A stretch of DNA of 64,000 nucleotides. Origin: Candidatus Woesearchaeota archaeon. Lineage in GTDB: Archaea > Nanobdellota > Nanobdellia > Woesearchaeales > GW2011-AR4. Position numbers and translations under genes: made by a program. Of the stretch, positions 159 to 52,091 are shown one piece after another. Numbering within the stretch: the first letter of the stretch is position 1; each line of letters opens with the position of its first letter. The stretch lies in assembly GCA_018303625.1 (NCBI GenBank), contig JAGVXV010000010.1:13411-77410 (forward strand), given 5' to 3'. The notes under the pieces were generated by a model. The model ran no database searches and was not told where the DNA came from. It saw only the letters and a list, made by a program, of their open reading frames with translations.

Positions 159-779
159 TTATTTATTCTTAAGCCTATAATATGTTAAACGACCTATAAC
201 AAAACCTATTAGTGTTCCGCCAATATGCGCAAAAATATTAACATTAGTCTTATTGTTAGCAAATGCCATCCATAATAAAAAAAGAAGCAGCACTATGCCA
301 GTAATTCTTCTTCTTAATGGAATTTCTTTTAAAAAACAGAGCAAAAAAATTATTAATCCAATTAACGAGAATGCGATGCCAGAACTACCTAAAAAATATC
401 CTGCATTGCTCCCCATTTTTATGCTATACCAATAAGCAATCAAGGTTATCCAAGGTGTGATTAAAACTACACGTAACAAATAATATCTCGCCAATTCTTC
501 CCTCTTTATTTGTTGAAGCAATAAAAACAAGATTGTTAAACAAAGTAAAATAATGACTGTATTGGAAAAATAATGTTGAAAATCATAATTAATAAAATCT
601 TTAGTATATATTTGCCAAAATGAAAAATTATTCCGGTTTAAGGCTAATTGTTCTTTGTAATCTTGAAAAAATATATACAAGATCGACATTATTATTGGCA
701 AGATTAAAGTAAAACTAAATTCTTTGGAGTTAAATTTAAATGATTTTCTCATATTAACTAGAATTAACCATCCTATCAA
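159..779 (-). CDS. Rhomboid-family intramembrane serine protease (polytopic membrane protein)
   Basis: 206-aa multi-TM ORF. It has a 'GSSGIAFSLIG' (GxSG-like) motif and a downstream 'AHIGGTLIGF' (AHxxGxxxG) motif, typical of rhomboid catalytic Ser/His helices. The alternative start M10 (about 752) would remove the overlap with the ispG stop. Confidence 0.55.
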   Translation of the reverse strand: MIGWLILVNMRKSFKFNSKEFSFTLILPIIMSILYIFFQDYKEQLALNRNNFSFWQIYTKDFINYDFQHYFSNTVIILLCLTILFLLLQQIKREELARYYLLRVVLITPWITLIAYWYSIKMGSNAGYFLGSSGIAFSLIGLIIFLLCFLKEIPLRRRITGIVLLLFLLWMAFANNKTNVNIFAHIGGTLIGFVIGRLTYYRLKNK

Positions 780-1809
780 TCTCCTTCATCAGCGTCTCAA
801 CAATTTTCTCTTTCTCAACCTTTCCAATTATCTTTCCATCCTTGTACAATAAATTGGTGTTTCCAGCCCCGCCTACAATTCCCAAATCAACCTTTTTGCT
901 TTCTCCCGGGCCGTTGACAGCGCAGCCCATAACTGCAACATGAATGGGCTTCTTTATTTTTTCAGTTTTCTGCTCCAGCTCCTCAACCATTTTGATTACA
1001 TCAACATGAGTTCTTGCACATGTAGGGCATGAAGTAACTTCAACACCATCATTTCTTAAGCCCAGGCTTCTCAATATCAGTTTTGCAACCCTTACTTCCT
1101 CTTTGGGCTCCTCTGACAATGAAACACGAATTGTGTCGCCAATTCCCTCTGACAATAAAATTCCCATGCCCATAGAGCTTTTTACAGCCCCCGGAACTTT
1201 GCTTCCCGCTTCTGTAACACCCAAATGCAACGGATAATCTTTCTTTTGCGCAAAAATCCTGTAGGCCTGAACCATCCTCGGCACATCAGAAGCTTTCAAA
1301 GAAACAACAATGTCATAAAAATCCAAGTTTTCCAAAATTTTCACATGCCTTAAAGCGCTTTCTGCCATACCTTCCGCGCTGTAGCCGTATTTTTCAAACA
1401 AATCGCGCTCCAAAGAGCCGAGATTAACACCAATTCTCATCGGCAATCCGTATTCTTTTGCAGCATCAACAACCGCCTTAACCCTATCCTCTTTTCCAAT
1501 ATTTCCGGGATTAATTCTTAATTTATCAACATACTTTGCAGCTTCCAATGCAATCCTATAGTCAAAATGGATGTCTGCAATCAAAGGAAGGTTTATGTTT
1601 GCCTTAATTTCCTTCAGGGATTTTGCTGCCTCCATTGTAGGGGCTGAAACCCTTATTATGTCGCATCCAATTTCCTCAAGCTCAAGAATCTGCTTTACGG
1701 TTGCATTAATGTTAGTTGTATCAGTTGTGGTCATTGATTGAATAGCAATAGGGTTATTGCCCCCTATTTTTACATTCCCTATTTTAACTTCTCTTGATTT
1801 CCTTCTCAT
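754..1809 (-). CDS. ispG: 4-hydroxy-3-methylbut-2-enyl diphosphate synthase IspG/GcpE, bacterial type
   Basis: 351 aa, collinear with bacterial IspG over its full length: 'IAIQSMTTTDT', 'IADIHFDYRIAL', 'RINPGNIG', and C-terminal 'CPTCAR...GCAVNGPGE' [4Fe-4S] cysteines. Confidence 0.85.
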   Translation of the reverse strand: MRRKSREVKIGNVKIGGNNPIAIQSMTTTDTTNINATVKQILELEEIGCDIIRVSAPTMEAAKSLKEIKANINLPLIADIHFDYRIALEAAKYVDKLRINPGNIGKEDRVKAVVDAAKEYGLPMRIGVNLGSLERDLFEKYGYSAEGMAESALRHVKILENLDFYDIVVSLKASDVPRMVQAYRIFAQKKDYPLHLGVTEAGSKVPGAVKSSMGMGILLSEGIGDTIRVSLSEEPKEEVRVAKLILRSLGLRNDGVEVTSCPTCARTHVDVIKMVEELEQKTEKIKKPIHVAVMGCAVNGPGESKKVDLGIVGGAGNTNLLYKDGKIIGKVEKEKIVETLMKEIDRMVNSS

Positions 1810-37158: not shown

Positions 37159-38214
37159 ATGGTAGAGGTAGGAAGAATAGTCAGAGATTTGGAAACTGTG
37201 AGAGAGCATTTACTTAGAACTGGAGCTAGGCCAGAAGTTGTTGACGCATTTAACAGAACTTTTCTACTTGACACTTTAAACACAGATGTCCTATCCAGAT
37301 TTGCATTTTATGGGCTACTGAGACGAACTATAGAAAATTATATTGAAGGGAATTTAATAATAGAACGCCAGGATAGAAGAAAACTGAATGGTGGCGATAG
37401 AGTCAATCTTAGGGGTAAAGCCAAAGAAGATAGAAGAGCCGAAAGAATAGAGGTTACAAGTGACATGATAGATGTAGCTATGTTTGATTTAGGCCGTTTT
37501 AAATTTTATAATGACGAATTTGGGGAATTAGTTGGAGATTTGCTTCTAGCAGTTGTAGGCGGAATGATTAGCAAGAACCTAAGGCCGTATGACGCCACCA
37601 CAGCACCAGTGGATTATGAATCTCTTTTGAGAAACATAGGCAGTGGGGTTGCAAGTAGGGAAAAAGGTGATGAATATAGGGCAATGATAGTCGGGACAAG
37701 ACAGCATAAGACAATAATTAACCGTATTCTTAAAAATGTCAGAAAGGAAGCCATAGAAGAGGCTTATAAACAAGTTAAAGGAAATCCAGAATTGATTAAT
37801 TTGTTTAGAGGTGATTCTTACGCAGAAAAAGAAAGTAACCTAGAGAAGTTTTACAGAGCACAAAAGACTATGCCAATAGTGTTAAGGGTAGGGTATGCCA
37901 TACTAAAAGACATTGAAAAAGAAGTTGAAAGAACTGAGCGCGCCAGAGACCCTGAGAACCTAGCTACCCGCTTGATAGTGGCAAGCACGGATACACAAGA
38001 AGCTGTTAAGATGAGCGGTGATTTGGGAAAAGTTTATTCTTATCAAGATTTAAAGAATGGAAAAATTGGGGGTAAAACGACAAGCCACATGCCTCCAAAT
38101 TTAGTTGAGATGGTTCAAAGGTATGGTGGTGAAGTTTTTCACCGTAGAGTTCTTGATGAAATTCGAGCCTCTCATCCTGACGCTTACAGATTGTTAACAA
38201 GAAGAACTGGTTGA
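37159..38214 (+). CDS. hypothetical protein (351 aa), Arg-rich, atypical codon usage
   Basis: A long, clean ORF adjacent to tRNA-Arg. Its codons are strongly AT3-biased (aga, tta, gta, aca) in contrast to core genes. No enzymatic motif is recognised. It ends with a Walker-A-like 'GKIGGKTTS' near the C-terminus. Confidence 0.4.
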   Translation: MVEVGRIVRDLETVREHLLRTGARPEVVDAFNRTFLLDTLNTDVLSRFAFYGLLRRTIENYIEGNLIIERQDRRKLNGGDRVNLRGKAKEDRRAERIEVTSDMIDVAMFDLGRFKFYNDEFGELVGDLLLAVVGGMISKNLRPYDATTAPVDYESLLRNIGSGVASREKGDEYRAMIVGTRQHKTIINRILKNVRKEAIEEAYKQVKGNPELINLFRGDSYAEKESNLEKFYRAQKTMPIVLRVGYAILKDIEKEVERTERARDPENLATRLIVASTDTQEAVKMSGDLGKVYSYQDLKNGKIGGKTTSHMPPNLVEMVQRYGGEVFHRRVLDEIRASHPDAYRLLTRRTG

Positions 38215-39896: not shown

Positions 39897-41237
39897 TTAA
39901 GAAGTTGGGTCTGATACTCTACCTATAAACAGAATTGTATTATTTTCACGTTCTTGAATTATGAAGATAAAAGGATGGTCTGCACGAAAAATTGGTGTTG
40001 GTGGTGGGATCGATATAATTCCAATAACAACTGCTGTTGCAGCTGCTGCTTCTGTGCCTTCCTCATTCACATCAACAAATGCCTGATGGATAACATCGCT
40101 AATAACAAGGTCTTTTTTTCCATCAATTCCAGAAAAATCCGCTTCTAGTGGATCAAATGATGATAAGATTCCCATTTCTTTAAGATTTTTAGAGAGAAAA
40201 TATTTACTATCAAAAGTAAACCGAGGTATAAAAACATCAACGTTTTGTTCTTTCAACTTGGTAACCCATTCAGTAAATTTAACTGTGGAAAGAGAGCTTT
40301 CAACTTTTTCTAAGTCATCATTTTTTGGAAGTAGGATTATCATCGATAAATTGTTTCCTTCATACAGCAATTCAAGAATCTGCGATTCATCTGTTTCTGC
40401 ATAATTGAATCTTGACTCTGTATACCTCATAATTGGCACTATTACAGTTTTTTCATTATTCACCTTAAATTCTTCATCCTTGGTTTCTTCTTTATCAAAT
40501 TGTACTAGCCAGTTTGCTTTAAAGTAAATTGCATTTGTAAGTACCAATCTTGTCGCGGCATCAAGAACGCCTACTGGAATTAAATCCTTAATCTTATCAT
40601 TAGTTTTATCTTCTACCCATTTATTTATTGTCTGCCGAGCTTCTTCAGTCGCTTTTATGAAATCAACAAGATTAGCGCTTGCATCATAATATTTTTGCAA
40701 TACATTAACATATTCATCTAAAATTCCAAAATCTTTTTGTACCCAAAATGCATTTGCAGTGCTAAGATTATATTTACTGTCCTTGCTATTTATTTTACTG
40801 TTAAGTTCTACATATGACAATCTAAGCAAGCCATAATCCTCTGGAAAATGCAATGTTCTTGCAATCTCATTTGCAGTCTCTCCACGTGCTCCTTCATATG
40901 TCATTGCAAGTGCTGCAGTAATGCTCCATGGAGAGAAAAAGATATTCCCTTCTTCCTCACTTAATTTTGAATAAAGATCAAAAGCAAATTGATTATTAGA
41001 GTCTGAAATGCCACTAAAATTTACTGTAATTGCTTTGTTATCTTTCTTTGCGGGTAATTCATGCTCTATAGATTGATTTTTAGCAGCGGATTCACGTTTC
41101 TCTAGAGGAGCAATTTCTTCATCTTTTTCTGGCAAATTATTAAATATCGCCAAATTAAGAACTACTAGAATACTAACTATAACGATAACTATCCATAAAA
41201 TAGTTAAAATCGTTTTCTTATCCATTTCCTCCAACAT
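39897..41237 (-). CDS. Serpin (serine protease inhibitor), membrane-anchored/secreted
   Basis: An N-terminal TM is followed by a serpin fold. It has the hinge 'NEEGTEAAAATAVVIGIISIPPP', the canonical EEGTEAAAAT inhibitory hinge, and the C-terminal 'FRADHPFIFIIQE...ILFIGRV' serpin signature. Codon usage is AT3-rich. Confidence 0.85.
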   Translation of the reverse strand: MLEEMDKKTILTILWIVIVIVSILVVLNLAIFNNLPEKDEEIAPLEKRESAAKNQSIEHELPAKKDNKAITVNFSGISDSNNQFAFDLYSKLSEEEGNIFFSPWSITAALAMTYEGARGETANEIARTLHFPEDYGLLRLSYVELNSKINSKDSKYNLSTANAFWVQKDFGILDEYVNVLQKYYDASANLVDFIKATEEARQTINKWVEDKTNDKIKDLIPVGVLDAATRLVLTNAIYFKANWLVQFDKEETKDEEFKVNNEKTVIVPIMRYTESRFNYAETDESQILELLYEGNNLSMIILLPKNDDLEKVESSLSTVKFTEWVTKLKEQNVDVFIPRFTFDSKYFLSKNLKEMGILSSFDPLEADFSGIDGKKDLVISDVIHQAFVDVNEEGTEAAAATAVVIGIISIPPPTPIFRADHPFIFIIQERENNTILFIGRVSDPTS

Positions 41238-41343
41238 TAGAATTAATATTACCTTCTTTAAAAACCCTTCGATTAAATCGTCGGGCTTTTAGTCATCAAA
41301 TTATCATTTACTAATAAAGCTGCTTTTCTTATTTTAACTGTAT

Positions 41344-43236
41344 TTAATTAACATCAACAACAAACTCGCGGCTTATTTCCTCAACGCCGTCGCTTACAGT
41401 AACCTTGATTTCCTTTTTGCCTTTTGACGCAAATGTCCTTTTGTGTATCGCAGTTGCATTGTGCTTGTCAAAAAGCCCGAAATCCCAGAGATAAGACAAA
41501 GCATCATTATCAAAATCCCTTGCCGCAACAAACAATGTTACCGGTTCGTTCACTTTAGCTGACAAATCCGTGCTGGAATTGACTATTTCAGGCGCTATAT
41601 TTTTATTGAAAACAGTAATGTTAAGCTCCTGCTCAGCACTATCCTGTCCATCGCTTGCAACAAACCTGACTTTTACGCTTTCTTTTTCTTTGCCTTTGAC
41701 AAAGGAAAAATCCGGCTTGAAAGTAAAAATGCTGCCTTCCAATTCAGCATTTTCCGGCAGATTTTCAGCAGAGAATCCTATTATATCATTGTCAGGATCT
41801 GTTGCCATTAATTCCATTCTAAGAGTTTTGTTTTCAGTTATTTCTGCATTTTTTAATGGCTCAAAGGCTGGAGCCCTGTTGACATTCTCAACACTGACAG
41901 TAACAAATTCCGAAGCAGTGTAAAACCCGTCAGTGCCCGTGACTTTTACGATATAAATGCCTGCATCATCAAAATTTGTCTTATAAGTATTTTTTGCCAT
42001 CCATCCTGAATATGCAAATGAAACCCTGTCGTTGTCAGGGTCGTTGTAGCGCGGCTCTATTTTAACTTCCTCATTTTCATCGATAGTGATTGGTGCAATA
42101 GGCTCCAAGGTAAAAGGCCTGTTTGCGTCCCTTACAGTTATTTTTACGTCTTTTTCCGCTTCATTTCCATTGCTTTCCGCCATAAACTTGATATTTACGC
42201 TTTTGCTTAGCAAATGAAACTTGTCGGCGATATAATCAACAAGATTTTCCTTTTTTACAAAATTGAAATCAGGCTTCCATCTGAAAGTATTTCCATCCAG
42301 TACAGCCCCATCCGGCATGTTCTGCGCAGAAAAGATTATGTCATCATTATCAGGGTCCTGAACATTCAGCTCTATGGCTGCTTCTTCATTTTCATTTATT
42401 GCAATATCCTTTAAGTCAACAAAAAAAGGAGGCCTGTCATTGTTGCTTACAGTCACTTTGACCTGCTTGCTTCCTGAAAATCCTTTTCCATCTGCTTTTA
42501 TCGTTACCTTATAGGTGCCTGCATCATCATAGCTCGTCTGCCATTTGTTGTTCTGCCCGATTGGCTCTGATATAGTGTAAATTAGGCCGTATTTTTTAAA
42601 ATCAGGAAGGTTTAAGCTTGCAATTTCTGTTTCCCGGACTGCAATATCCTGTATAGAATCCAGAACATTTTCCATGCTGACATCATTTACCTCTACAATC
42701 CATTCGTTGCTTACACTATGGAGTTTATCTGAGACAACAATCTTGACATTATGCGTTCCGGCATCTTCGTAATCAGTTAAGTAATTTATAGTCTTGTCAT
42801 TGCTCACCAAAACATCATCAAGAAACCATTCATAGGCTAGAGTGTCTTTATTCAGGTCAGAGGCTGAAACATCAAAGCTTATGCTTTCTCCCTCATTAAT
42901 TGCCACTTTGTTTTCTTTCGGGGCAAAGCTTTCAATTGCCGGCTTTTCCTCCTTTTTACTGACAACCAGCAAAACCTCCTGGGAACTGCTCAATTCTCCA
43001 TCGCTTACAGTAATTGTGACTTTATATTCGCCTGCATCACCATAAGTTGTCTGCCACTCGCCATTTTCATTTAAAGGCTCGCTGTATGAATAAACAAGAT
43101 TCTGCGCATCAGGGTCTGTGGCTTTCGGCTGCAGGCTTACCAGTCCGGTTTCATTATAGGCAAAGGTTGTTATGCCGGAAGAGATATTAGCAACTAATAA
43201 TAAAACTAGCAATAGCAAAATTATTTTTTCCCCCAT
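41344..43236 (-). CDS. Secreted protein with about 6 PKD-like Ig-fold repeats
   Basis: A signal peptide is followed by repeats of roughly 90 aa, each with 'Y..DAG.Y.V.V.V.D' PKD signatures (for example 'TTYGDAGEYKVTITVSDGELSS', 'TDYEDAGTHNVKIVVSDKLHS'). Confidence 0.6.
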   Translation of the reverse strand: MGEKIILLLLVLLLVANISSGITTFAYNETGLVSLQPKATDPDAQNLVYSYSEPLNENGEWQTTYGDAGEYKVTITVSDGELSSSQEVLLVVSKKEEKPAIESFAPKENKVAINEGESISFDVSASDLNKDTLAYEWFLDDVLVSNDKTINYLTDYEDAGTHNVKIVVSDKLHSVSNEWIVEVNDVSMENVLDSIQDIAVRETEIASLNLPDFKKYGLIYTISEPIGQNNKWQTSYDDAGTYKVTIKADGKGFSGSKQVKVTVSNNDRPPFFVDLKDIAINENEEAAIELNVQDPDNDDIIFSAQNMPDGAVLDGNTFRWKPDFNFVKKENLVDYIADKFHLLSKSVNIKFMAESNGNEAEKDVKITVRDANRPFTLEPIAPITIDENEEVKIEPRYNDPDNDRVSFAYSGWMAKNTYKTNFDDAGIYIVKVTGTDGFYTASEFVTVSVENVNRAPAFEPLKNAEITENKTLRMELMATDPDNDIIGFSAENLPENAELEGSIFTFKPDFSFVKGKEKESVKVRFVASDGQDSAEQELNITVFNKNIAPEIVNSSTDLSAKVNEPVTLFVAARDFDNDALSYLWDFGLFDKHNATAIHKRTFASKGKKEIKVTVSDGVEEISREFVVDVN

Positions 43237-43264
43237 TTTTTACCAAAAAGAAAATTAATTAAAA

Positions 43265-44278
43265 TTATTCCTGCACTATGTCTATTATCTGCGGAGGCCT
43301 GTTTACATTCTCTACTATGACGGCAACTTCCTGGCTTGCTTCATCAGTGCCGTCTGATGCCGTTACTTTTACAGTATACGTTCCTGAATCATCATAGGTT
43401 GTCTCCCAAACGCCGTCATTTCCTACAGGATCAGATATTGTAAATGCAATTTCATCTCCGTCCAAATCTGCCGCTTTAGGCCCTATGGTTACTGTTTCTG
43501 TCTCTTTAACTTTTATAGCTGGGATTTCCTCCAGTACCGGCTTCCTGTTTACATTATTTACAGTGACAGACCATAAGTTTTCTGTCGATAGCTTGCCATC
43601 TGAAACAGTGACTTTTACTGTGTGGCTTCCGGCATCATCATAAGTGATTTCATATTTGAAGTAATCGCTGCCTGAAACCTCACTGCCGTCCAGTTTCCAT
43701 TCATAGCTTATTTTATCCTTGTTTAAATCAACGGCTTTAACGTTAAATTCAATTGCTTTTGTTTCACTTGTGATTGCGGTCTTTTCATGAGGCATAAAGC
43801 TCTCGATTACAGGCGCTTCTTCCTTTTTATTTACAATTATCAAAACTTCTTTTGAGCTTGTCAGTTCGCCGTCTGAAACAGTCACAGTAACGGTATATTC
43901 GCCAGCATCGCCGTAAGTTGTCTTCCATTCGCCTTTTTCGTTTAACGGGCTGCTGAATGCAAACTCTAATTCATCCTTATCAGGGTCCTGGGCTTTAGGA
44001 GTTAAGCTTACAATGTCTGTTTCCTGCACTATAATAACAGTCGCTTCCCCTACTTCTTCCCTGACTTCCTTCACTTCCTCTTTTTCAGCTTCCTTTTCTA
44101 CAGGAGCCTCTTCTTTTATTAGTTCTCCTATGGTTATGTTTTCCTCAGGAATCTTGACTACCTCCCCAACAGGAGCCGGCGGCGCATATAGTGTATTGTA
44201 GACGTCGCAGGCTGACAAGAAAACAGCGAATATAACAAGAGTTGCAATGAGCGCTTTTAATTTCATAATACCCCTCAT
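43265..44278 (-). CDS. Secreted/lipobox-anchored protein with 3 PKD-like repeats (paralog of the upstream gene)
   Basis: A signal peptide ends 'FLSAC' (lipobox-like). The repeats 'TTYGDAGEYTVTVTVSDGELTS', 'ITYDDAGSHTVKVTVSDGKLST' and 'TTYDDSGTYTVKVTASDGTDEA' are closely related to the 41344-43236 repeats. Confidence 0.6.
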   Translation of the reverse strand: MRGIMKLKALIATLVIFAVFLSACDVYNTLYAPPAPVGEVVKIPEENITIGELIKEEAPVEKEAEKEEVKEVREEVGEATVIIVQETDIVSLTPKAQDPDKDELEFAFSSPLNEKGEWKTTYGDAGEYTVTVTVSDGELTSSKEVLIIVNKKEEAPVIESFMPHEKTAITSETKAIEFNVKAVDLNKDKISYEWKLDGSEVSGSDYFKYEITYDDAGSHTVKVTVSDGKLSTENLWSVTVNNVNRKPVLEEIPAIKVKETETVTIGPKAADLDGDEIAFTISDPVGNDGVWETTYDDSGTYTVKVTASDGTDEASQEVAVIVENVNRPPQIIDIVQE

Positions 44279-44362
44279 TTTTTATTTGTACTTATTCTAA
44301 AATAACAACTACTATTTAAATTTTGCGGGTAGTGAAAGTTTTTAAATAAAAAATAAGCAGAA

Positions 44363-44490
44363 TGGGCCTGCCAGGATTTGAACCTGGGACCATTCTCGGC
44401 TTATTGGCTCTCGATGTCTAACAGCTGGTTATCAGTTTCGCCGCCTCTTCTGGAGACTCGAGCATTCTAACCAGACTGAACTACAGGCCC
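44363..44490 (-). tRNA. tRNA, 128 nt, with a roughly 36-nt anticodon-loop intron and extra nucleotides in the variable region; anticodon probably CTC (Glu) but uncertain
   Basis: Minus strand. Acceptor GGGCCTG/CAGGCCC with A73. An intact D-arm GTTC-AGTCTGGTTA-GAAT. Anticodon stem CTCGA/TCGAG enclosing 43 nt. T-arm CCAGG-TTCAAAT-CCTGG preceded by 22 nt. Confidence 0.55.
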
Positions 44491-44533
44491 GTGATTTTAA
44501 ATTTGGTATGAATTTATGGCGATTTAAAAAAAA

Positions 44534-44637
44534 CGCCCCTGACCAGACTCGAACTGGTGATCTTACGGTTACAGCGCAAAGCTAACAGCCGTACGCTCTA
44601 CCTATTGCTCCACTCATAGTGTCTAAGCTACAGGGGC
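44534..44637 (-). tRNA. tRNA-Asn (GTT) with two introns (D-loop about 20 nt; anticodon loop about 13 nt)
   Basis: Minus strand. Acceptor GCCCCTG/CAGGGGC with G73. D-stem GCTT/GAGC with an interrupted D-loop 'AG|intron|GGTA'. Anticodon stem TACGG/CCGTA with loop CTGTTA|intron|A. T-arm ACCAG-TTCGAGT-CTGGT. Confidence 0.6.
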
Positions 44638-44746
44638 ATCGAGTTCTGGAATAAAAGAATTGTTTAAATAGGTTTCTATGCAAAGATTAAAATAATAAAT
44701 CGGGATTAATTCAGTCTGCCTTCGGCAGATTTTAGTGCAGTTATAA

Positions 44747-45160
44747 TCAATTTATTTCAATAACTTTTACCTTGAAATTCAAGTCTTTTCCCGCCAATGG
44801 ATGATTTAAATCTATTAAGACGGCATCTTCCCTTACTTCCTTGATTACAGAAGGCATTCTTTCACCCTGGGGCCCTTTCAGGAGCAGATGGCCGCCAACT
44901 TGAACTTCCGGAGGAAGCTTGCTTCTTGGAACAGAAACAACAAGCCTTTCATCCCTTTCCCCGTAAGCGTCTTTTGAGCTTATCTTTATTGTTTTTTCCT
45001 CATTTAGATTCATTTCTTTTACTCCATTTTCAAAGCCCGGAATAACCTGGTTATTACCTATTGTGAATTCCAATGGCTCTCTCCCGTCAGAGCTGTCAAA
45101 TACAGTCCCGTCATTCAATGTTCCTGTGTAATGGACTTTTACTTTGTCTCCTAGGTTCAT
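44747..45160 (-). CDS. FKBP-type peptidyl-prolyl cis-trans isomerase (SlyD-like, with IF insertion)
   Basis: 'VKVHYTGTLNDGTVFDSS...EFTIGNNQVIPGFENGVKEM' is the FKBP core. The C-terminal insert-in-flap is typical of archaeal short FKBP. Confidence 0.85.
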   Translation of the reverse strand: MNLGDKVKVHYTGTLNDGTVFDSSDGREPLEFTIGNNQVIPGFENGVKEMNLNEEKTIKISSKDAYGERDERLVVSVPRSKLPPEVQVGGHLLLKGPQGERMPSVIKEVREDAVLIDLNHPLAGKDLNFKVKVIEIN

Positions 45161-45290
45161 TTTAGGGAGAAATTATGAAATGATATTTAAGGGTTGTGGG
45201 TTAAGGCTCTGAATTTTTATTCAGCTCTGCAAGAATTAATTATATAATTTAAAACTAAAATTTAAATAGTACCATGCTTAATACTTTATT

Positions 45291-45548
45291 ATGTACGAGA
45301 TTTATACTGCAAATAGCAGAACAGAAAAAAGGCTCAAAGATCATATAAAAGAAAGGCAGGATATTCTCAAAAAGCTTCAAAGATTAAAGCTTTCTCCAAG
45401 AACGGAAATAGGTGCGCATCCCCTGCATGGAAAGCTGAGCGGAAAATGGAGCTGCTGGCTTGGCTCCAATATCAGGATGATTTACAGCATTGATGACAAT
45501 AACAGGCAGATAATCGTAGAAGCAATAGGAACCCATCAGGTTTATTAA
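45291..45548 (+). CDS. YoeB/Txe-like (RelE/ParE superfamily) toxin
   Basis: 85 aa. 'GAHPLHGKLSGKWSCWLGSNIRMIYSIDDNNRQIIVEAIGTHQVY' matches the YoeB C-terminal catalytic region (LSGxWSRRI...RLVY...H.Y). Confidence 0.65.
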   Translation: MYEIYTANSRTEKRLKDHIKERQDILKKLQRLKLSPRTEIGAHPLHGKLSGKWSCWLGSNIRMIYSIDDNNRQIIVEAIGTHQVY

Positions 45549-46048: not shown

Positions 46049-47587
46049 CTAAACCTCCACTTCCCTCTTAACCACAACCTTCCCAGTAATTGACCTCAAC
46101 ATATGCCCAGTTATCTCTAAATCATAGAATTTCTTTAGCTCTAATCTTCCCTTAACCCCAACAATTATCGGATATGTTCCAAACTGCCTGCAGAATGTTG
46201 TGTTGCCGTCATAGATTTCCGCATAACAATTGGTTAAAACTGTTCCGTTTGGAATTACTCTCTGCAGCATTGGCCAGTCTATTTTCTGCCTTATTTCATT
46301 GCGCCATTTCCAGTATAATTTTTTATTTTTTCTTAAAAACTTGTCCCTGCCTTTGTTATATAATGAAGTGCCTTCAAATATTGCAACCTGCCTTATGTTA
46401 ATCCTCCTTAGCATCAATCCTTCATCATAAATTCTTTTCAACCATTTCATGTTCTCTTCATGGGTTTTCTTTGTTTCATTGCGAAGCCCGAAAATTATAT
46501 TGACTCCGGGCAAAAACCTGGGCATTCCGTCAGGGCCTCTTTCAGCCCCGTATTTGTTCAGTATCTTAACCGCTTCATAAGCAATCTGAGGAGGAGTATT
46601 CAATGTATTTGCCTTCACAACCTCTAAATCAAAAGACTCAACTCCAAAAGCGGCAATATTTCCCGAAGTGCAGTACTTAACAATTGCTTTTGTTATTTCA
46701 AAATCACTTTTCTTGTCCATAACAACCTTGACAGGATTTACATTATCAATATGCAAAACCTTAATATCAGGGCATTTGCCATTTATTTCTTTCAGTAATT
46801 CTGCGGCATAAGGCAAAGTATAGAAGCAGGTCTGCTTTCCAAGCCTAAAATAACGAGCGCCAAGATTGTAAAACTCAATAACCTCCTGCAAAACATCCTC
46901 TTTATCGCGAAACTCAACTCTGTTTTTCAGAGGCTCTGTGCAAAAGCTGCACTTTCCTATGTCGCAGCCGTGCCCAGTCTCAATCTCTATCATGCGATGA
47001 TCAGGAATCTGCTTTATGATTGAAGCCCCTTTTATTGAATGATTCTTCACATCAGAATATTTGAAATTAAACATTGAATAATCAACTTTGTCAAAAGCGC
47101 CTAAATCAGCTTTTTCAAAAAACTTGCCGCCAAAAAGCTGCGTTCCGAAAACAGCAGGTCCTGTCAAAATTTTCTCGCATCTTAAATCCTTAATCATTGG
47201 AATTATCTCATTTAGGGTGCCAGGCACTGCAGAAAGATATTTTCCCGGAACATGAACACCAAGGACAACAATCAAGGTACCTGTTTCAGCAAGAATTTTC
47301 CCAATATTTTTATAATTAATTGTCAGGTTATAAGTTGTAATGTCTGTTTTCTGCGACGGCCTTATTGCTCTTATTTCTGAATTGTTTTTTTTCCACAACC
47401 TCAAATCATCAATAGTTAAATAACAAGCATCTTCATTCAGGTATCCTGCTATGTACCTAGGATACGTGCCAAGATAAGGCGGAACTCCAAGCCCGGCCGG
47501 CTCATCAGTATAGCAGTCAAGTATAGTATATCCCATAGCTTGGAGTAATGCTTTTTCATTTAAAAAGGTATTTGAAAAAGAAAACAT
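46049..47587 (-). CDS. Radical SAM domain protein with N-terminal extension and C-terminal TRAM-like region
   Basis: 512 aa. It has a radical SAM cluster 'IETGHGCDIGKCSFC' (Cx4Cx2C). The C-terminal 'GVKGRLELKKFYDLEITGHMLRSITGKVVVKREVEV' resembles a TRAM/OB domain. Confidence 0.65.
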   Translation of the reverse strand: MFSFSNTFLNEKALLQAMGYTILDCYTDEPAGLGVPPYLGTYPRYIAGYLNEDACYLTIDDLRLWKKNNSEIRAIRPSQKTDITTYNLTINYKNIGKILAETGTLIVVLGVHVPGKYLSAVPGTLNEIIPMIKDLRCEKILTGPAVFGTQLFGGKFFEKADLGAFDKVDYSMFNFKYSDVKNHSIKGASIIKQIPDHRMIEIETGHGCDIGKCSFCTEPLKNRVEFRDKEDVLQEVIEFYNLGARYFRLGKQTCFYTLPYAAELLKEINGKCPDIKVLHIDNVNPVKVVMDKKSDFEITKAIVKYCTSGNIAAFGVESFDLEVVKANTLNTPPQIAYEAVKILNKYGAERGPDGMPRFLPGVNIIFGLRNETKKTHEENMKWLKRIYDEGLMLRRINIRQVAIFEGTSLYNKGRDKFLRKNKKLYWKWRNEIRQKIDWPMLQRVIPNGTVLTNCYAEIYDGNTTFCRQFGTYPIIVGVKGRLELKKFYDLEITGHMLRSITGKVVVKREVEV

Positions 47588-47616
47588 TTAAATTATTGAT
47601 ATTTTAAATAAAAACT

Positions 47617-48231
47617 ATGTTGGGGATTGTATTGTATATTGCGTTAATCTTTATTTTATTGCTAGCTTTATTCCTCCTAAACTTCTACCGCGACCCTGAA
47701 AGAAAAATACCAAAAGGAAATAATATTGTTTCCCCGGCGGACGGCAGAATAATCAGAATAATAAAAATAAATTCCAATGAGAAAATAAAAATAAAAAAGG
47801 GAATTTTGGGAAAGATTGAAACATTGACAAAAGATGTCGCAAAGGAATGCTATCTGGTCTCAATTTTCATGTCGCCTTTTGATGTCCACATCAACAGGGC
47901 TCCAATAGATGGAAAAATAAAAAAAATAAAATATGAAAAAGGCAGGTTTTTCTCCGCCTTCAATTTTGAAAAATCGCTGAAAAACGAAAAAAATGAGATA
48001 TTAATAGAAAGTAAAATCGGCAATGTCAAGGCAATCCAGATAGCCGGTTTTCTTGCAAGGAAGATAAAATGCTTCGTGAAAGAAAATCAAAAAATTAATA
48101 AAGGGCAGAAAATAGGCGCGATTGTGTTGGGGTCGCAAGTGTCTTTGGTAATTCCCGCAAAAATAACATTAAAAATAAAAATAGGCGATAAAGTAAAAGC
48201 TGGCTCGACAATAATTGCTGGATTAAAATGA
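47617..48231 (+). CDS. psd: Phosphatidylserine (archaetidylserine) decarboxylase-like proenzyme
   Basis: An N-terminal TM, then 'FYRDPERKIPKGNNIVSPADGRI', 'FMSPFDVHINRAPIDGKI' and the C-terminal 'GAIVLGSQVS'. A small Psd with a GS cleavage-site-like motif. Confidence 0.7.
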   Translation: MLGIVLYIALIFILLLALFLLNFYRDPERKIPKGNNIVSPADGRIIRIIKINSNEKIKIKKGILGKIETLTKDVAKECYLVSIFMSPFDVHINRAPIDGKIKKIKYEKGRFFSAFNFEKSLKNEKNEILIESKIGNVKAIQIAGFLARKIKCFVKENQKINKGQKIGAIVLGSQVSLVIPAKITLKIKIGDKVKAGSTIIAGLK

Positions 48232-48797
48232 ACTCTCAACTCATATTTCTGTCAAACTTCCTCCGCAGCCCGAGGGAAATAGCGGCTGTTGCGCCAAGCT
48301 CAAGGTATGTGGTAGATAAGGTGATTAGCCAGATAGATTTTGGCAAAGCCAGGCTTATAGTTGAGTACGGGCCCGGAACAGGAATTCTGACAAAGGCCAT
48401 ACTTGAAAGGTTAAAGCCCAATGGAAAATTAGTATGCTTTGAGCTTAATTCAAAATTCTGCAGGCATCTTGCAAGCAGCCTTGATGATCCAAGGCTTACC
48501 ATTATCAATGATTCTGCGGAAAAGCTGGACTTTTACCTGGATAAGCTCAAGATAAAAGCAAAAATTGATTATGCGCTGTCTTCCATACCTTTTTTGCTTA
48601 TAAAAGACAGGCGCAAGCACTCCATCATCAGGAAAACAAAGGACAGCCTCGGCAAGAACGGAAAATTCATAGTGTATCAGCAGTATTCGTGGCACATAAG
48701 GAACTACCTGAGCTTTTACTTCAAAAAAATCTCAACGGGATTTGAAATAAGGAATATTCCCCCTACGTTTATCTACAGGTGTGAAAAGGCAGAATGA
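48228..48797 (+). CDS. Small class I SAM-dependent methyltransferase (KsgA/Erm-like fold; phospholipid N-methyltransferase-like)
   Basis: 189 aa. Motif I is 'LIVEYGPGTGILTKAIL' followed by 'LVCFELNSKF'. It lacks the rRNA-dimethylase NxPY motif (it has 'SSIPF'). It overlaps psd by 4 nt and the downstream gene by 4 nt, suggesting a translationally coupled operon. Confidence 0.5.
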   Translation: MNSQLIFLSNFLRSPREIAAVAPSSRYVVDKVISQIDFGKARLIVEYGPGTGILTKAILERLKPNGKLVCFELNSKFCRHLASSLDDPRLTIINDSAEKLDFYLDKLKIKAKIDYALSSIPFLLIKDRRKHSIIRKTKDSLGKNGKFIVYQQYSWHIRNYLSFYFKKISTGFEIRNIPPTFIYRCEKAE

Positions 48798-49831
48798 AGT
48801 TAAAAATACGCAATAGGAAATTTCCAATAACACTGACTTTGCTTAGGGTCCTTCTTGCCCCGATAGTGATGCTTGTTATCCTGTACGAAAGAAAAAACAT
48901 TGCCGCGTTCCTGTTTGTCCTTACAGCGCTGATAGGCTTCTTTGACAGCCTGATTGCGAAAAAAAAGAAAAGGTCGCAGTTAAGGTCGATAGTGGATTTA
49001 TTGGCAGATAAGTTGCTGGTAAATCTTACAGCTATAGCACTTTATTTTAAAGCCGTGCTTCCATTGTGGGTAACCTTGGTTTTTCTTGGCAGAGACCTGC
49101 TGACGGTTTCTGGAGCTTCAATCCTGCTTTACAAGGACAGGAGAAGGGAGTTTAAGCCGACTTTCTCAGGCAGGATTATGCTGTTTTTCCAGATAATGGC
49201 GTTTATCCCAGCCATATTGCAGACAATTGACTGGCTTCTTATTTACATTGCAGTTTTCTTAACCGCGGCATCGGCAGTTGAATGGGCCTTCAAGTCAGAG
49301 TTCAGGCTTGTAAGGAGGACTGATATGGATGAATTCAGGATTTCAAAATTAATAAAATTTTCAGATGTTTTTACATTAACAAATGTAGTTTCCGGGCTGA
49401 CTGCAATACTGTTTTCAGTAACCTACAAGCATAATCTGGCTGCAATAATGCTCGTAACTGCGGTTATTTTTGATTACCTGGACGGAAAAATCGCGCTTTT
49501 GACAAAAACAAGCAACGAATTCGGCAAAGAGCTTGACAGCCTGGCAGACACCATAAGCTTTGGCGTTGCGCCGGCTGTTTTTGGCTTTTCCCTGATACAA
49601 ACGCCGCTGGCGATTATAGCCTTCGCCATTTTTCTTTTTTGCGGCATTTTAAGGCTTGCAAGGTACAATATAATGGAGTTCAAGGGGGAATATCATGGTA
49701 TGCCGATAACACTCAACGGTGTTATTGTGCCTCTGGTTTATTTCCTCAAAATGCCGTTTGACTACTACCCATACCTTTACCTTATATTGAGTATCCTGAT
49801 GATTTCTTCCCTAAGGGTAAAGAAGCTATAG
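48794..49831 (+). CDS. CDP-alcohol phosphatidyltransferase with duplicated domain (N-terminal copy degenerate)
   Basis: The C-terminal half has the canonical 'DGKIALLTKTSNEFGKELDSLADTIS' (D-G-x2-A-R-x8-G-x3-D-x3-D). The N-terminal half has the related 'FDSLIAKKKKRSQLRSIVDLLADKLL'. About 8 TM helices. Confidence 0.7.
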   Translation: MKLKIRNRKFPITLTLLRVLLAPIVMLVILYERKNIAAFLFVLTALIGFFDSLIAKKKKRSQLRSIVDLLADKLLVNLTAIALYFKAVLPLWVTLVFLGRDLLTVSGASILLYKDRRREFKPTFSGRIMLFFQIMAFIPAILQTIDWLLIYIAVFLTAASAVEWAFKSEFRLVRRTDMDEFRISKLIKFSDVFTLTNVVSGLTAILFSVTYKHNLAAIMLVTAVIFDYLDGKIALLTKTSNEFGKELDSLADTISFGVAPAVFGFSLIQTPLAIIAFAIFLFCGILRLARYNIMEFKGEYHGMPITLNGVIVPLVYFLKMPFDYYPYLYLILSILMISSLRVKKL

Positions 49832-50854
49832 CTTCCTGCTGCTTGCCTTGGCCATAAAGGCGACCATAGTCAAATAAGCAAAACTCAGGGCTGCTATAAG
49901 GAAATGATTCTTATAAACAAAATTTATAAGTATTGTCAAGACAGTTATATAGCTCAATCCCACGGTAATCTTGCTTACGGTAGAAGTAAGCGTTTTGTTG
50001 TGCTTCTTGAGGTAGTATAGCTTTATGATTGCAGTTGAAACAGATGGAATTGCTGCCAAAATGCCGAATATAAAGGAGATATGCCCTGAGTAGATAAATG
50101 CTATAAGGGCTACAACAATAAATGTCCAGTCAGTAAAAGAATCAAAATTGCTGCCAAATTCCGTAACCTGCTTCATTAATCTTGCAGAAATGCCGTCAAT
50201 TTTGTCGCTCAGGGCTATAATCGCAAAAATCATAATGGAGATGTTGGTCTTGTCCTCAAAAACAAAGATGACAAAAACAGGGATTAGCACAAGCCTTGTT
50301 AAGGTTATCAAATTAGGTATGTTAAGCATCTTGTCCTTCACGAGATTGCTGAATTTGATTAGGTAGTCAAGCCCGGAGATTACTGTAAATAAAACCGCGA
50401 TGAGCATTACATGCCATGCAAACTGGAATTTCAATATAACAAGCAAAATGCCTATTGTCTGTGTTATTGTTTTCAGCTTGCCTAAAATGCTCGCGCTCAC
50501 TACAGTGCCTTTCGAGACAAATATCAGCCTCAGGCCTGTTATAATCCATTCCCTCGCTATTATTACGACAACCATCCACAAAGGAATGCCTTTGCCCATG
50601 AAAAAAATCAGGGCTACGGAAATCAAAAGCTTATCTGCAATAGGGTCTATCAGCTTCCCAATTTCCGTAATTTCCTTTCTTTTCCTCGCTATATAGCCGT
50701 CCAGCGCATCAGATAATGATAAGATTATGAAGATAAATGCCGCAAAATATTCTATATATGGTAAATTCAAAACAAGAAAATAAACAAACAGGGGTATGAG
50801 CAATACCCTGATGACCGTAATTTGATTGGGTTTTGAAAAAATATCCTTTGCCAC
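49826..50854 (-). CDS. Tandem-domain CDP-alcohol phosphatidyltransferase (two complete catalytic motifs)
   Basis: Two full motifs: 'SDALDGYIARKRKEITEIGKLIDPIADKL' and 'SDKIDGISARLMKQVTEFGSNFDSFTDWT'. 342 aa, polytopic. Confidence 0.75.
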   Translation of the reverse strand: MAKDIFSKPNQITVIRVLLIPLFVYFLVLNLPYIEYFAAFIFIILSLSDALDGYIARKRKEITEIGKLIDPIADKLLISVALIFFMGKGIPLWMVVVIIAREWIITGLRLIFVSKGTVVSASILGKLKTITQTIGILLVILKFQFAWHVMLIAVLFTVISGLDYLIKFSNLVKDKMLNIPNLITLTRLVLIPVFVIFVFEDKTNISIMIFAIIALSDKIDGISARLMKQVTEFGSNFDSFTDWTFIVVALIAFIYSGHISFIFGILAAIPSVSTAIIKLYYLKKHNKTLTSTVSKITVGLSYITVLTILINFVYKNHFLIAALSFAYLTMVAFMAKASSRKL

Positions 50855-50903
50855 TTTCCTTCAAATCATAAACTTTATAATGCTTATATAGTTTTCTGTT
50901 TGA

Positions 50904-51539
50904 ATGAAATATGATCTCCATATGCATACACATTACTCCAAATGCGGCAATCTAAAGCCGGAACTGCTGCTGAAAATCGCGAAAAAACGCGGCCTGGACG
51001 GCATTGCAGTTACCGACCATAACACCATTAAAGGTGCATTAGAGGTAAAAAAACTGAATAAAAATAAGAAATTTGAAGTCATTGTCGGTGAGGAAATATC
51101 CACCAATGTTGGGGAAGTCTTGGCCTATTACTTAAAAAAACAGGTAAAAAAAGGTGATTTTTTCTCAGTTGTTGATGAGGTAAAAAAGCAAGGCGCTTTG
51201 GCTTCATTATCGCATCCTTTCAGGACATCGTTAAACCCAAACCACCGCTTTAAGCTCCCAATAGAAAAAATTAAAAATAGGGTAGATGCCATGGAGGTTT
51301 TTAATGCAAGGAACCTGCCAGGGAACAATGAAATGTCCCAGAGAACGGCAAAAAAATTAAATTTGGCAGGAACGGCAGGCTCTGATGCGCATTTTTCCTT
51401 TGAAATAGCAAAAGCTTACACAATTTTTGATGGTAATTTAAGGCAAGCAATTAAAAAAAATGAGACAAAATTCAAAGGAACAATAATTTTTGGCCCTTTT
51501 GGGGGCTTACTGAGCTTTTTGAGAAACAGGTTTTTGTAA
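50904..51539 (+). CDS. PHP-domain metal-dependent phosphoesterase
   Basis: 'MKYDLHMHTHYSKCGNLKPELLLKIAKKRGLDGIAVTDHNTIKGA', 'SHPF', 'GSDAH'. These are PHP His/Asp ligands. Confidence 0.7.
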   Translation: MKYDLHMHTHYSKCGNLKPELLLKIAKKRGLDGIAVTDHNTIKGALEVKKLNKNKKFEVIVGEEISTNVGEVLAYYLKKQVKKGDFFSVVDEVKKQGALASLSHPFRTSLNPNHRFKLPIEKIKNRVDAMEVFNARNLPGNNEMSQRTAKKLNLAGTAGSDAHFSFEIAKAYTIFDGNLRQAIKKNETKFKGTIIFGPFGGLLSFLRNRFL

Positions 51540-51548
51540 AGAGGCAAA

Positions 51549-52091
51549 ATGATATTTATTTTAATTGTAAAGGCTTTCTATTTCATGCTTCCGGCATATT
51601 TCGCCAACATGGCCCCCGTTATTGTAAAAAGGCTGTTCAAAAACCTGGCAATTGCTATAGATTCCGGCAGAAGATTTGGCAATAAGCCAATCCTTGGGAG
51701 CAACAAGACGTGGCGCGGCCTGGTTTTCGGGATTATTTTTGCGATTGTCATCTCATTTTTGCAATTTTTATTTTATAATAATAATATTTTTGCGGAAATA
51801 TCTTTGGTGGATTATTCCAATTGGCTGTTATTTGGGTTTTTAATGGGCTTCGGTGCTTTGCTTGGAGACATGACAAAAAGTTTTTTTAAAAGAAGGCTGG
51901 GTTATGCTCCGGGAAAGCCTTTTATCCCGTTTGACCAGCTTGACTTTGTCGTAGGAGCCCTGCTTTTTACTTACCCCTTGGTTAAACTGCCGATAGGGCT
52001 TGTAATCACAACAATTTTGCTGAGTTTTTTTTTAGATATTGCTGTAAACCATATATCCTATTACCTCAAAATAAGGAACGAGAAGTGGTAA
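51549..52091 (+). CDS. carS: CDP-archaeol synthase (CarS)
   Basis: 180 aa with about 5 TM helices. 'GNKPILGSNKTWRGLVFG' and the C-terminal 'PFDQLDFVVGALL' are CarS signatures. Confidence 0.8.
   Translation: MIFILIVKAFYFMLPAYFANMAPVIVKRLFKNLAIAIDSGRRFGNKPILGSNKTWRGLVFGIIFAIVISFLQFLFYNNNIFAEISLVDYSNWLLFGFLMGFGALLGDMTKSFFKRRLGYAPGKPFIPFDQLDFVVGALLFTYPLVKLPIGLVITTILLSFFLDIAVNHISYYLKIRNEKW

Follow-up and report, generated by a model that had tools for sequence, protein, structure and literature searches.

The S-type phospholipid N-methyltransferase PmtA of Agrobacterium tumefaciens (AtPmtA) is a soluble class I methyltransferase of about 190 residues that uses S-adenosylmethionine (SAM) and acts downstream of phosphatidylserine synthase (PssA) and phosphatidylserine decarboxylase (Psd). 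A second bacterial enzyme, the ornithine-lipid N-methyltransferase OlsG of Singulisphaera acidiphila, was described by Escobedo-Hinojosa in 2015 (cited in PMC12971839) and makes phosphatidylcholine (PC) from phosphatidylethanolamine (PE) when expressed in Escherichia coli (PMC12971839); both characterised enzymes methylate PE (PMC12139422, PMC12971839). In archaea, an archaetidylserine synthase and decarboxylase pair fed by CarS-derived CDP-archaeol is known from Methanothermobacter and Methanocaldococcus jannaschii, the synthase of the latter being referred to here as MjPSS (PMC8633023, PMC9385802). Here we analyse a 64,000-nucleotide stretch of the genome of a Candidatus Woesearchaeota archaeon (assembly GCA_018303625.1, contig JAGVXV010000010.1, positions 13,411 to 77,410; hereafter the window), in which the gene for a predicted methyltransferase (MT) of 189 residues lies between psd and pssA.

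N-methylated ether lipids have been reported from archaea before. Ca. Methanoperedens is rich in monomethyl- and dimethyl-PE archaeols (MMPE- and DMPE-archaeols; PMC6581649 and bioRxiv 10.64898/2026.04.11.717812), archaetidylcholine occurs in Methanopyrus (cited in PMC6581649, PMC5572230), and phosphatidyl-monomethylethanolamine (PME)-, DMPE- and PC-archaeol have been detected in environmental samples from springs and seeps (PMC13032954). N-methyltransferases annotated through KEGG are noted for more than 30 species of archaea (PMC13032954). A preliminary description of this locus called the head-group route that it implies unusual in archaea, which is fair, but in view of the reported N-methyl PE-archaeols and archaetidylcholine the route is not unprecedented. 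In the literature that we searched there is no characterised archaeal enzyme for the N-methylation step, no description of a psd–MT–pssA operon, and nothing relevant on Woesearchaeota or DPANN archaea with psd, pssA or an N-methyltransferase. A 2022 review of archaeal glycerophospholipid biosynthesis (PMC9385802) does not mention an N-methyltransferase step.

The locus resembles the archaeal synthase and decarboxylase pair in most of its PssA motif, its short Psd and its supply of CDP-archaeol from CarS, and differs from it in that a degenerate PgsA-like domain precedes PssA in the same protein and an MT gene stands between psd and pssA. Unlike its bacterial homologues, which stand alone, MT is embedded in the psd–pssA operon, and in contrast to the OlsG setting no ornithine-lipid synthase was seen near its gene. 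The archaeal host encodes CarS, and the substrate of MT is therefore presumably an isoprenoid lipid with ether bonds. We suggest, at a probability of roughly 0.68, that MT methylates the nitrogen of the ethanolamine head group which the other products of the operon make. The kind of enzyme is known, whereas its host and the operon in which it stands are new.

The psd–MT–pssA operon and its products

The three open reading frames (ORFs) lie on the forward strand and encode proteins of 204, 189 and 345 residues (Table 1). Both junctions are four-nucleotide ATGA overlaps, at 48228-48231 between psd and MT (read as aaaATGAac) and at 48794-48797 between MT and pssA (cagaATGAag), and these coordinates agree exactly with the three overlapping genes of the preliminary description. 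The same locus is found in two independent assemblies, one from ENA (L006) and one from JGI (L007), and the MT sequence is 100% identical to that of an NCBI protein from 'Candidatus Woesearchaeota archaeon'. The window is archaeal, with genes for archaeal-type ribosomal proteins L1, L10, S24e and S15, for Rpb7, for subunits of an A-type ATP synthase, for an ATP-dependent DNA ligase and for CarS. We read psd, MT and pssA as a single operon devoted to the head groups of amino-phospholipids, with its genes coupled in translation.

By profile comparison, MT is matched end to end by two models of lipid methyltransferases. The best curated match is OlsG (NF041658; 102.7 bits, model positions 1-186 of 191), followed by Agrobacterium PmtA (NF045881; 61.5 bits, 16-193 of 197). 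Neither score reaches the equivalog cut-off, which is 350 for OlsG and 250 for PmtA, and with scores so far below these values MT represents a separate, uncharacterised subfamily that is the equivalog of neither. The ksgA model gives 38.9 bits over only positions 16-104 of 256 (cut-off 171) and the Erm model 35 bits (cut-off 212), the KsgA and Erm matches being confined to about positions 8-113 of models that are 256-263 long. Likewise, the sole Pfam match is RrnaAD, to the N-terminal half of the protein (residues 26-119, about 25-120). The same ranking is obtained for all 19 aligned members of the MT clade, with OlsG as the best model, PmtA as the second, both at full length, and KsgA and Erm restricted to the SAM-binding half. 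MT therefore shares with KsgA, Dim1 and Erm the Rossmann SAM-binding half, but with 189 residues it is shorter than these enzymes (about 250-290), has S-I-P-F at residues 119-122 where KsgA has NxPY, and lacks the C-terminal RNA-binding domain. An identity as KsgA or Erm was ruled out on these grounds. The preliminary description had proposed a KsgA-like fold without NxPY and a resemblance to bacterial phospholipid N-methyltransferases, of which the first is accurate and the second is borne out by the profile classification across the clade. This clade comprises 33 protein clusters with identities to MT of 51-70%, and received a bootstrap value of 71/100 in a neighbour-joining (NJ) analysis, computed with numpy, which is a rough distance tree that contains no OlsG reference sequence.

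AtPmtA is also the closest relative of solved structure. Its entry 9KO3, which is the enzyme without its first 25 residues (PMC12139422), is the best match to MT in the Protein Data Bank (PDB), both by phmmer (E 1.9e-10, query 14-183 on chain 3-169) and by a Foldseek search with the AlphaFold2 (AF2) model of MT, where it ranks first with TM values of 0.72/0.81. Profile alignment of MT with 9KO3 by hhalign gives a probability of 98.5%, and identity to AtPmtA is 25-30% over the full length. The AF2 model has alternating beta and alpha elements and a confidence (pLDDT) of 90.2.

Residues of the PmtA substrate groove fall on conserved positions of MT. SAM motif I, V-E46-Y-G48-P-G50-T-G52 (VEYGPGTG), is invariant in a 36-sequence alignment and near-invariant in a set of 161 sequences, and includes the GPGTG that MT shares with AtPmtA. 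The substrate-groove loop A32-I-V-P-T36 of AtPmtA aligns with A20-V-A-P-S24 of MT by phmmer, by hhalign and in the MAFFT set, so that both proteins display an A-[VI]-x-P-[ST] loop. By all three methods the catalytic Tyr161 aligns with Y153. Ala128 aligns with S119, inside the S-I-P-F motif, and Ile186 with I177, inside an RNIPP motif that is common to the two proteins; the roles of the substrate-groove residues of PmtA, including the need for Tyr161 in methylation, are described in PMC12139422. Y150 of MT is invariant across the clade. An N-terminal helix, amphipathic and membrane-binding in this enzyme family, is possibly shared as well. In AtPmtA this helix has 25 residues and the one predicted for MT is about 12 residues shorter, being modelled by AF2 at residues 3-13 with low pLDDT (about 65). 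Its hydrophobic moment is 0.35 over residues 2-13 and reaches 0.74 in an 11-residue segment from residue 8, and F7, S9, F11 and P15 at the N-terminus are invariant in the clade.

The first gene of the operon had been recognised as a phosphatidylserine decarboxylase homologue, and its product scores above the cut-off of the Psd model NF003685 (Table 1). On TIGR00164 it obtains 209.7 bits, under the cut-off of 230. In an alignment with E. coli Psd the PADG (D42) and D-x-H (DVH, H91) motifs are retained, and an LGS self-cleavage motif is found by inspection at residues 171-173.

For the third gene the preliminary description had left a choice between a serine-type and an inositol-type phosphatidyltransferase. 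The serine type holds, since the C-terminal domain exceeds the pssA cut-off of TIGR00473 (Table 1). The inositol type does not hold, and neither does the implied single-domain architecture. Pfam finds CDP-OH_P_transf in two stretches of the 345-residue protein, which joins a degenerate PgsA-like domain to a PssA domain. The PssA domain (residues 181-343, or 176-345 by the division of Table 1) matches MjPSS (7POW) with an E-value of 2.5e-24, 38-39% identity and a TMt of 0.65, and scores lower than NF038087 and TIGR04217, the 'exception' models for archaea, require. When the motif of the PssA class, D-x2-D-G-x2-A-R-x8-G-x3-D-x3-D, was sought in it, D227, D230, G231, A234, G244, D248 and D252 were present and invariant, and Leu235 stood in place of the Arg. 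The arginines of the LRLAR motif (R101 and R104 of MjPSS) are conserved as well.

The N-terminal domain matches Staphylococcus aureus PgsA (7DRK) in fold, and in place of the catalytic motif it carries [DE]51-x-x-[IVTL]54-x-K-[KR]...D68-x3-D72, which in all 38 aligned homologues lacks the second Asp as well as the Gly. Despite this degenerate motif the domain is 51-75% conserved among homologues. In one lineage (L003 and L009) it is wholly missing and the gene product has 201 residues. Judged from these sequence features, the domain is probably a non-catalytic partner. CDP-alcohol transferases of this class normally form homodimers, and the AF2 model of the full 345-residue protein (predicted TM-score 0.76) indicates that the two halves may be compatible with packing as an intramolecular pseudo-dimer.

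Presence and absence of the methyltransferase in relatives

We compared eight genomic contexts of the MT clade, namely the window and P0004, P0005, P0013, P0017, P0019, P0028 (contig L008) and P0030, in which the MTs of the relatives are 51-60% identical to that of the window. Each of the eight keeps the three genes of the operon in one cluster, and in seven they are contiguous with four-nucleotide overlaps. In the remaining one (L092) a gene for a HAD-type 'PGP_phosphatase' (PF09419) stands between psd and MT. Here the overlaps are lost and the three genes are nonetheless still clustered, which argues for selection on their co-location. The preliminary description had pointed to gene order in relatives as a check, and given this recurrence the arrangement is more than a chance association. 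Neither of the two outcomes that it had named as refuting, a robust grouping of MT with rRNA or tRNA methylases and a gene order that differs between relatives, was observed.

Outside the clade the association is not seen. Neither psd nor pssA was found near the MT homologues at 72 bacterial and two other archaeal loci, where the homologues are 35-44% identical to MT. The two archaeal loci are L068, from Pacearchaeota (44%), and L030 (39%), and their lack of psd and pssA indicates that the operon is specific to one clade. No lipid genes at all lie beside the bacterial homologues at P0035, P0036, P0061 or the 72 bacterial loci, a result that is uninformative. Such a gene context is typical for bacterial pmtA.

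The tandem PssA is much more widespread than MT, with more than 120 clusters that are at least 57% identical, and those of its clusters that bear an organism name are from Woesearchaeota or Nanoarchaeota. The closest relative by PssA (L094; 76% identity in PssA, 85% in the PgsA N-domain and 68% in CarS) has the same neighbourhood, with pssA following psd after 18 nucleotides and no MT. This MT-less locus with the same synteny indicates that MT is an accessory gene that was inserted precisely into an older, conserved psd–pssA operon that is widespread in Woesearchaeota, and the insertion is the strongest contextual argument that MT acts on the operon product. In a further relative, a Woesearchaeal genome without MT (L095, 4747-5004, forward strand), the slot between psd and pssA is occupied by an 85-residue Cys-rich ORF (CINCGECCKLP...) with a four-nucleotide overlap onto pssA. 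We considered whether this ORF might be a decayed remnant of MT and rejected the idea, as it encodes an unrelated protein without tblastn similarity to MT. The psd/pssA slot thus seems to accept different small accessory genes.

Over 46049-52091 the window shows a mosaic of similarities. Its radical-SAM protein, encoded upstream of and divergently from psd, is 79-83% identical to that of the MT-bearing group and 62% to that of L094, whereas its PssA, PgsA and CarS are closest to L094 and only 59-66% identical to the MT-bearing group. This pattern suggests recombination near psd, which is possibly the event that brought in MT.

A link to Ca. Methanoperedens was not found, as the sequences retrieved in a second search for homologues came from Woesearchaeota, Pacearchaeota and bacteria, and none was a protein named as Methanoperedens. 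Two contigs with homologues, L008 (CAYTDO010000078.1) and L030 (CAZRZZ010000061.1), are both titled 'uncultured Methanosarcinales archaeon'. In L008 the Woesearchaeal synteny is complete and the radical-SAM protein is 79% identical to that of the window, so that its label looks like an error of binning or taxonomy. The GC content of L030 is 48-55%.

In several relatives (L001, L003, L005, L091, L092, L094 and L095) we also observed a larger head-group island. It includes DUF212 and DedA/VTT-domain proteins, one or two extra single-domain CDP-alcohol transferases, an iron-containing alcohol dehydrogenase (possibly a glycerol-1-phosphate dehydrogenase) and a PlsC-type acyltransferase, the last being a bacterial-type ester-lipid enzyme in an archaeon.

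Proposed route and competing explanations

Our interpretation is drawn from homology and gene context, and by these it is supported. CarS, whose gene is 1.7 kb downstream, would provide CDP-archaeol. The PssA domain of the 345-residue protein would then transfer the archaetidyl group onto L-serine to give archaetidylserine, and the pyruvoyl enzyme Psd would decarboxylate this to archaetidylethanolamine. MT, a class I SAM enzyme that would be either soluble or peripheral, would finally place one or more methyl groups from SAM on the amine of the head group. This would yield N-monomethyl-archaetidylethanolamine, with the N,N-dimethyl form and archaetidylcholine as possible further products. A route of this kind, from CDP-archaeol through archaetidylserine and archaetidylethanolamine to N-methylated derivatives, was anticipated in the preliminary description and agrees with the family placement and the gene order. 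We infer from the sequences that the proteins are active, that the substrate of MT is archaetidylethanolamine rather than diacyl PE or another amine, and that the backbone is an ether; one or more methylations are likewise put forward on this basis.

A number of observations weigh against the assignment. The scores of MT lie so far under the OlsG and PmtA cut-offs that the substrate is not transferable by homology alone. The equivalent of the catalytic Tyr161 is only partly conserved, being Tyr in 27 of the 33 clade members and Tyr, Asn or Phe in the wider family. Synteny among related genomes could in part reflect shared ancestry and not selection. Ile159 of PmtA (Phe in BdPmtA), the residue on which the number of methylations depends (PMC12139422), aligns ambiguously, with either Q151 or Y150 of MT, so that a Gln or a Tyr stands where AtPmtA has its Ile/Phe specificity position. 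The product series is therefore not predictable, and an attempt to derive a methyl-group count from the Ile/Phe rule of PMC12139422 was dropped. Foldseek separates MT poorly from other small class I methyltransferases, the generic ones following close behind PmtA. Finally, the window PssA has Leu235 at the position of the motif Arg, which is Arg49 in MjPSS and binds the phosphates of CDP there (PMC8633023), and this might weaken the enzyme.

One competing explanation is that the substrate of MT is not a lipid but rRNA, tRNA, a protein or a small molecule, and that its place in the operon is an accident of insertion kept by synteny. Foldseek places MnmM, YtqB and rRNA methylases only slightly behind PmtA, Pfam detects RrnaAD only, the context of most bacterial homologues is uninformative, and the NJ support of the clade is only 71/100. 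We nevertheless regard a non-lipid substrate as unlikely, for the KsgA/Erm match covers the SAM-binding half only, without an RNA-binding C-terminal domain or NxPY, while the lipid-methyltransferase models match over the full length, and the association with psd and pssA persists even where the overlaps have been lost, in L092. Comparably improbable, in our view, is that MT acts on a different lipid amine, be it archaetidylserine not yet decarboxylated, an ornithine-type aminolipid or diacyl PE scavenged from a host. MT stands precisely between psd and pssA, two genes that together lead to an ethanolamine head group, and this speaks against it, as does the lack of an OlsB or OlsF homologue in the Pfam annotations obtained for the examined loci. 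Ornithine lipids are, moreover, reported to be absent from archaea, and OlsG, whose model scores best with MT (102.7 against 61.5 bits for PmtA), methylates PE too (PMC12971839). The OlsG score in itself would favour an ornithine-type substrate, and so would the PlsC-family acyltransferases in the clusters of relatives. OlsA is a PlsC-family enzyme, and DPANN archaea often depend on host lipids. MjPSS accepts CDP-diacylglycerol (PMC8633023), and taken together with the PlsC-type acyltransferases this means that the backbone could be diacyl.

A third explanation is that the pathway is impaired in the window genome and the operon is a decaying remnant, as the pair A234-L235, in contrast to A-R49 of MjPSS, could be taken to indicate. 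We consider this very improbable. The identical protein sequence is present in the independent assemblies from ENA and JGI, the four Asp and both Gly of the motif are intact, K232 beside it is nearly invariant, and there are no frameshifts or stops. Position 235 is Lys or Arg in 28 of 38 homologues and non-basic (Ala, Val or Phe) in at least seven, which argues that the family tolerates a non-basic residue.

We thus favour N-methylation of the archaetidylethanolamine head group by MT. A more far-reaching scenario, in which a subset of Woesearchaeota captured a bacterial-type lipid N-methyltransferase in its psd–pssA operon and makes N-methyl archaetidylethanolamine and its further methylated forms up to archaetidylcholine, with a PssA that is a fused pseudo-heterodimer of one dead and one live domain, is as a whole doubtful and offered tentatively.

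Neighbouring genes and implications for Woesearchaeota

The coordinates of the operon and of the genes around it are collected in Table 1.

Table 1. Features of the lipid head-group locus, in window coordinates.
Feature	Position	Strand	Details
Radical-SAM protein, divergent from psd	46049..47587	-	512 aa; PF04055
Divergent intergenic spacer, radical-SAM gene/psd	47588..47616		29 bp, AT-rich
psd, archaetidylserine/phosphatidylserine decarboxylase proenzyme, short archaeal/Bacillus type	47617..48231	+	204 aa; PF02666 173 bits; NF003685 207 bits (cut-off 183)
MT, S-type Pmt/OlsG-family SAM-dependent lipid head-group N-methyltransferase (predicted)	48228..48797	+	189 aa
pssA, phosphatidyltransferase fusion	48794..49831	+	345 aa
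PgsA-like N-domain, residues 1-175, degenerate motif	48794..49318	+	TIGR00560 pgsA 67 bits, below cut-off
PssA C-domain (archaetidylserine synthase), residues 176-345	49319..49831	+	TIGR00473 pssA 131.8 bits (cut-off 107)
Tandem CDP-alcohol phosphatidyltransferase, convergent	49826..50854	-	342 aa; TIGR00560 pgsA 182.4 bits (cut-off 109), two stretches
PHP-family phosphoesterase	50904..51539	+	conserved beside CarS and the pgsA-like gene in the majority of relatives
CarS, CDP-archaeol synthase	51549..52091	+	PF01864 129 bits; NF003114 155.3 bits (cut-off 148)

Downstream of pssA, the convergent 342-residue protein belongs to the same head-group cluster. Its N-terminal domain is a PgsA (archaetidylglycerophosphate synthase) and its C-terminal domain is divergent with the motif intact, both DxxDGxxAR...GxxxDxxxD motifs being present in all aligned orthologues. 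Bifunctionality is one possibility for this tandem protein, an obligate fused dimer another. The adjoining PHP phosphoesterase could be a candidate archaetidylglycerophosphate phosphatase. CarS, which the preliminary description had placed nearby, is confirmed by a score above the cut-off of its model.

On the other side of psd, the radical-SAM protein is more conserved in the MT-bearing relatives than the lipid genes are, and its gene is always divergent from psd. A role as tetraether synthase (GDGT-MAS/Tes), and with it a link of the locus to core-lipid synthesis, was considered for it and dropped, as its only match in the PDB is a weak one to the radical-SAM protein 9ccb (E 0.0035). The spacer between the two genes reads TTAAATTATTGATATTTTAAATAAAAACT. 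It includes TTAAATTATT at about -29 to -20 from the psd ATG and, on the reverse strand, TATTTAAAA at about -17 to -25 from the ATG of the radical-SAM gene. To judge from the sequence, these are probably TATA-like boxes placed back to back, one for each of two leaderless transcripts, leaderless transcription from the spacer being suggested by its AT-richness and its length of 29 bp.

Elsewhere in the window we noted a full-length GcpE/IspG (754-1809, reverse strand; PF04551, 499.8 bits), an enzyme of the bacterial-type methylerythritol phosphate/deoxyxylulose phosphate (MEP/DOXP) pathway. Archaea normally use the mevalonate pathway for isoprenoids. Upstream of the lipid cluster, 39897-45548 encodes a serpin (446 residues), two large surface proteins with PKD/Big_9 repeats, an FKBP and a YafQ-like toxin ORF, and a weak GGDEF-like match (35 bits) lies at 37159-38214.

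DPANN archaea are usually regarded as lipid scavengers. The present locus indicates that some of them keep and elaborate a head-group tailoring cluster consisting of CarS, PgsA, PssA, Psd and MT. MT is a testable candidate gene for the N-methylated ether lipids of some archaea and sediments, and the sister lineage that has the same locus minus MT offers a natural control. If our reading is correct, this would be the first gene assigned to the N-methylation step in any archaeon, and the fused pseudo-heterodimer architecture would be one not described before for the CDP-alcohol transferase class. N-methyl ethanolamine and choline archaeols serve as rare biomarkers, for example of ANME-2d, Methanopyrus, cold seeps and springs. 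On the same reading, the uncultured Woesearchaeota that carry MT would be a biological source of the PME-, phosphatidyl-dimethylethanolamine (PDME)- and PC-archaeol biomarkers in groundwater and sediments. The head-group chemistry of this Woesearchaeal clade is probably modified by way of a mostly bacterial methyltransferase family.

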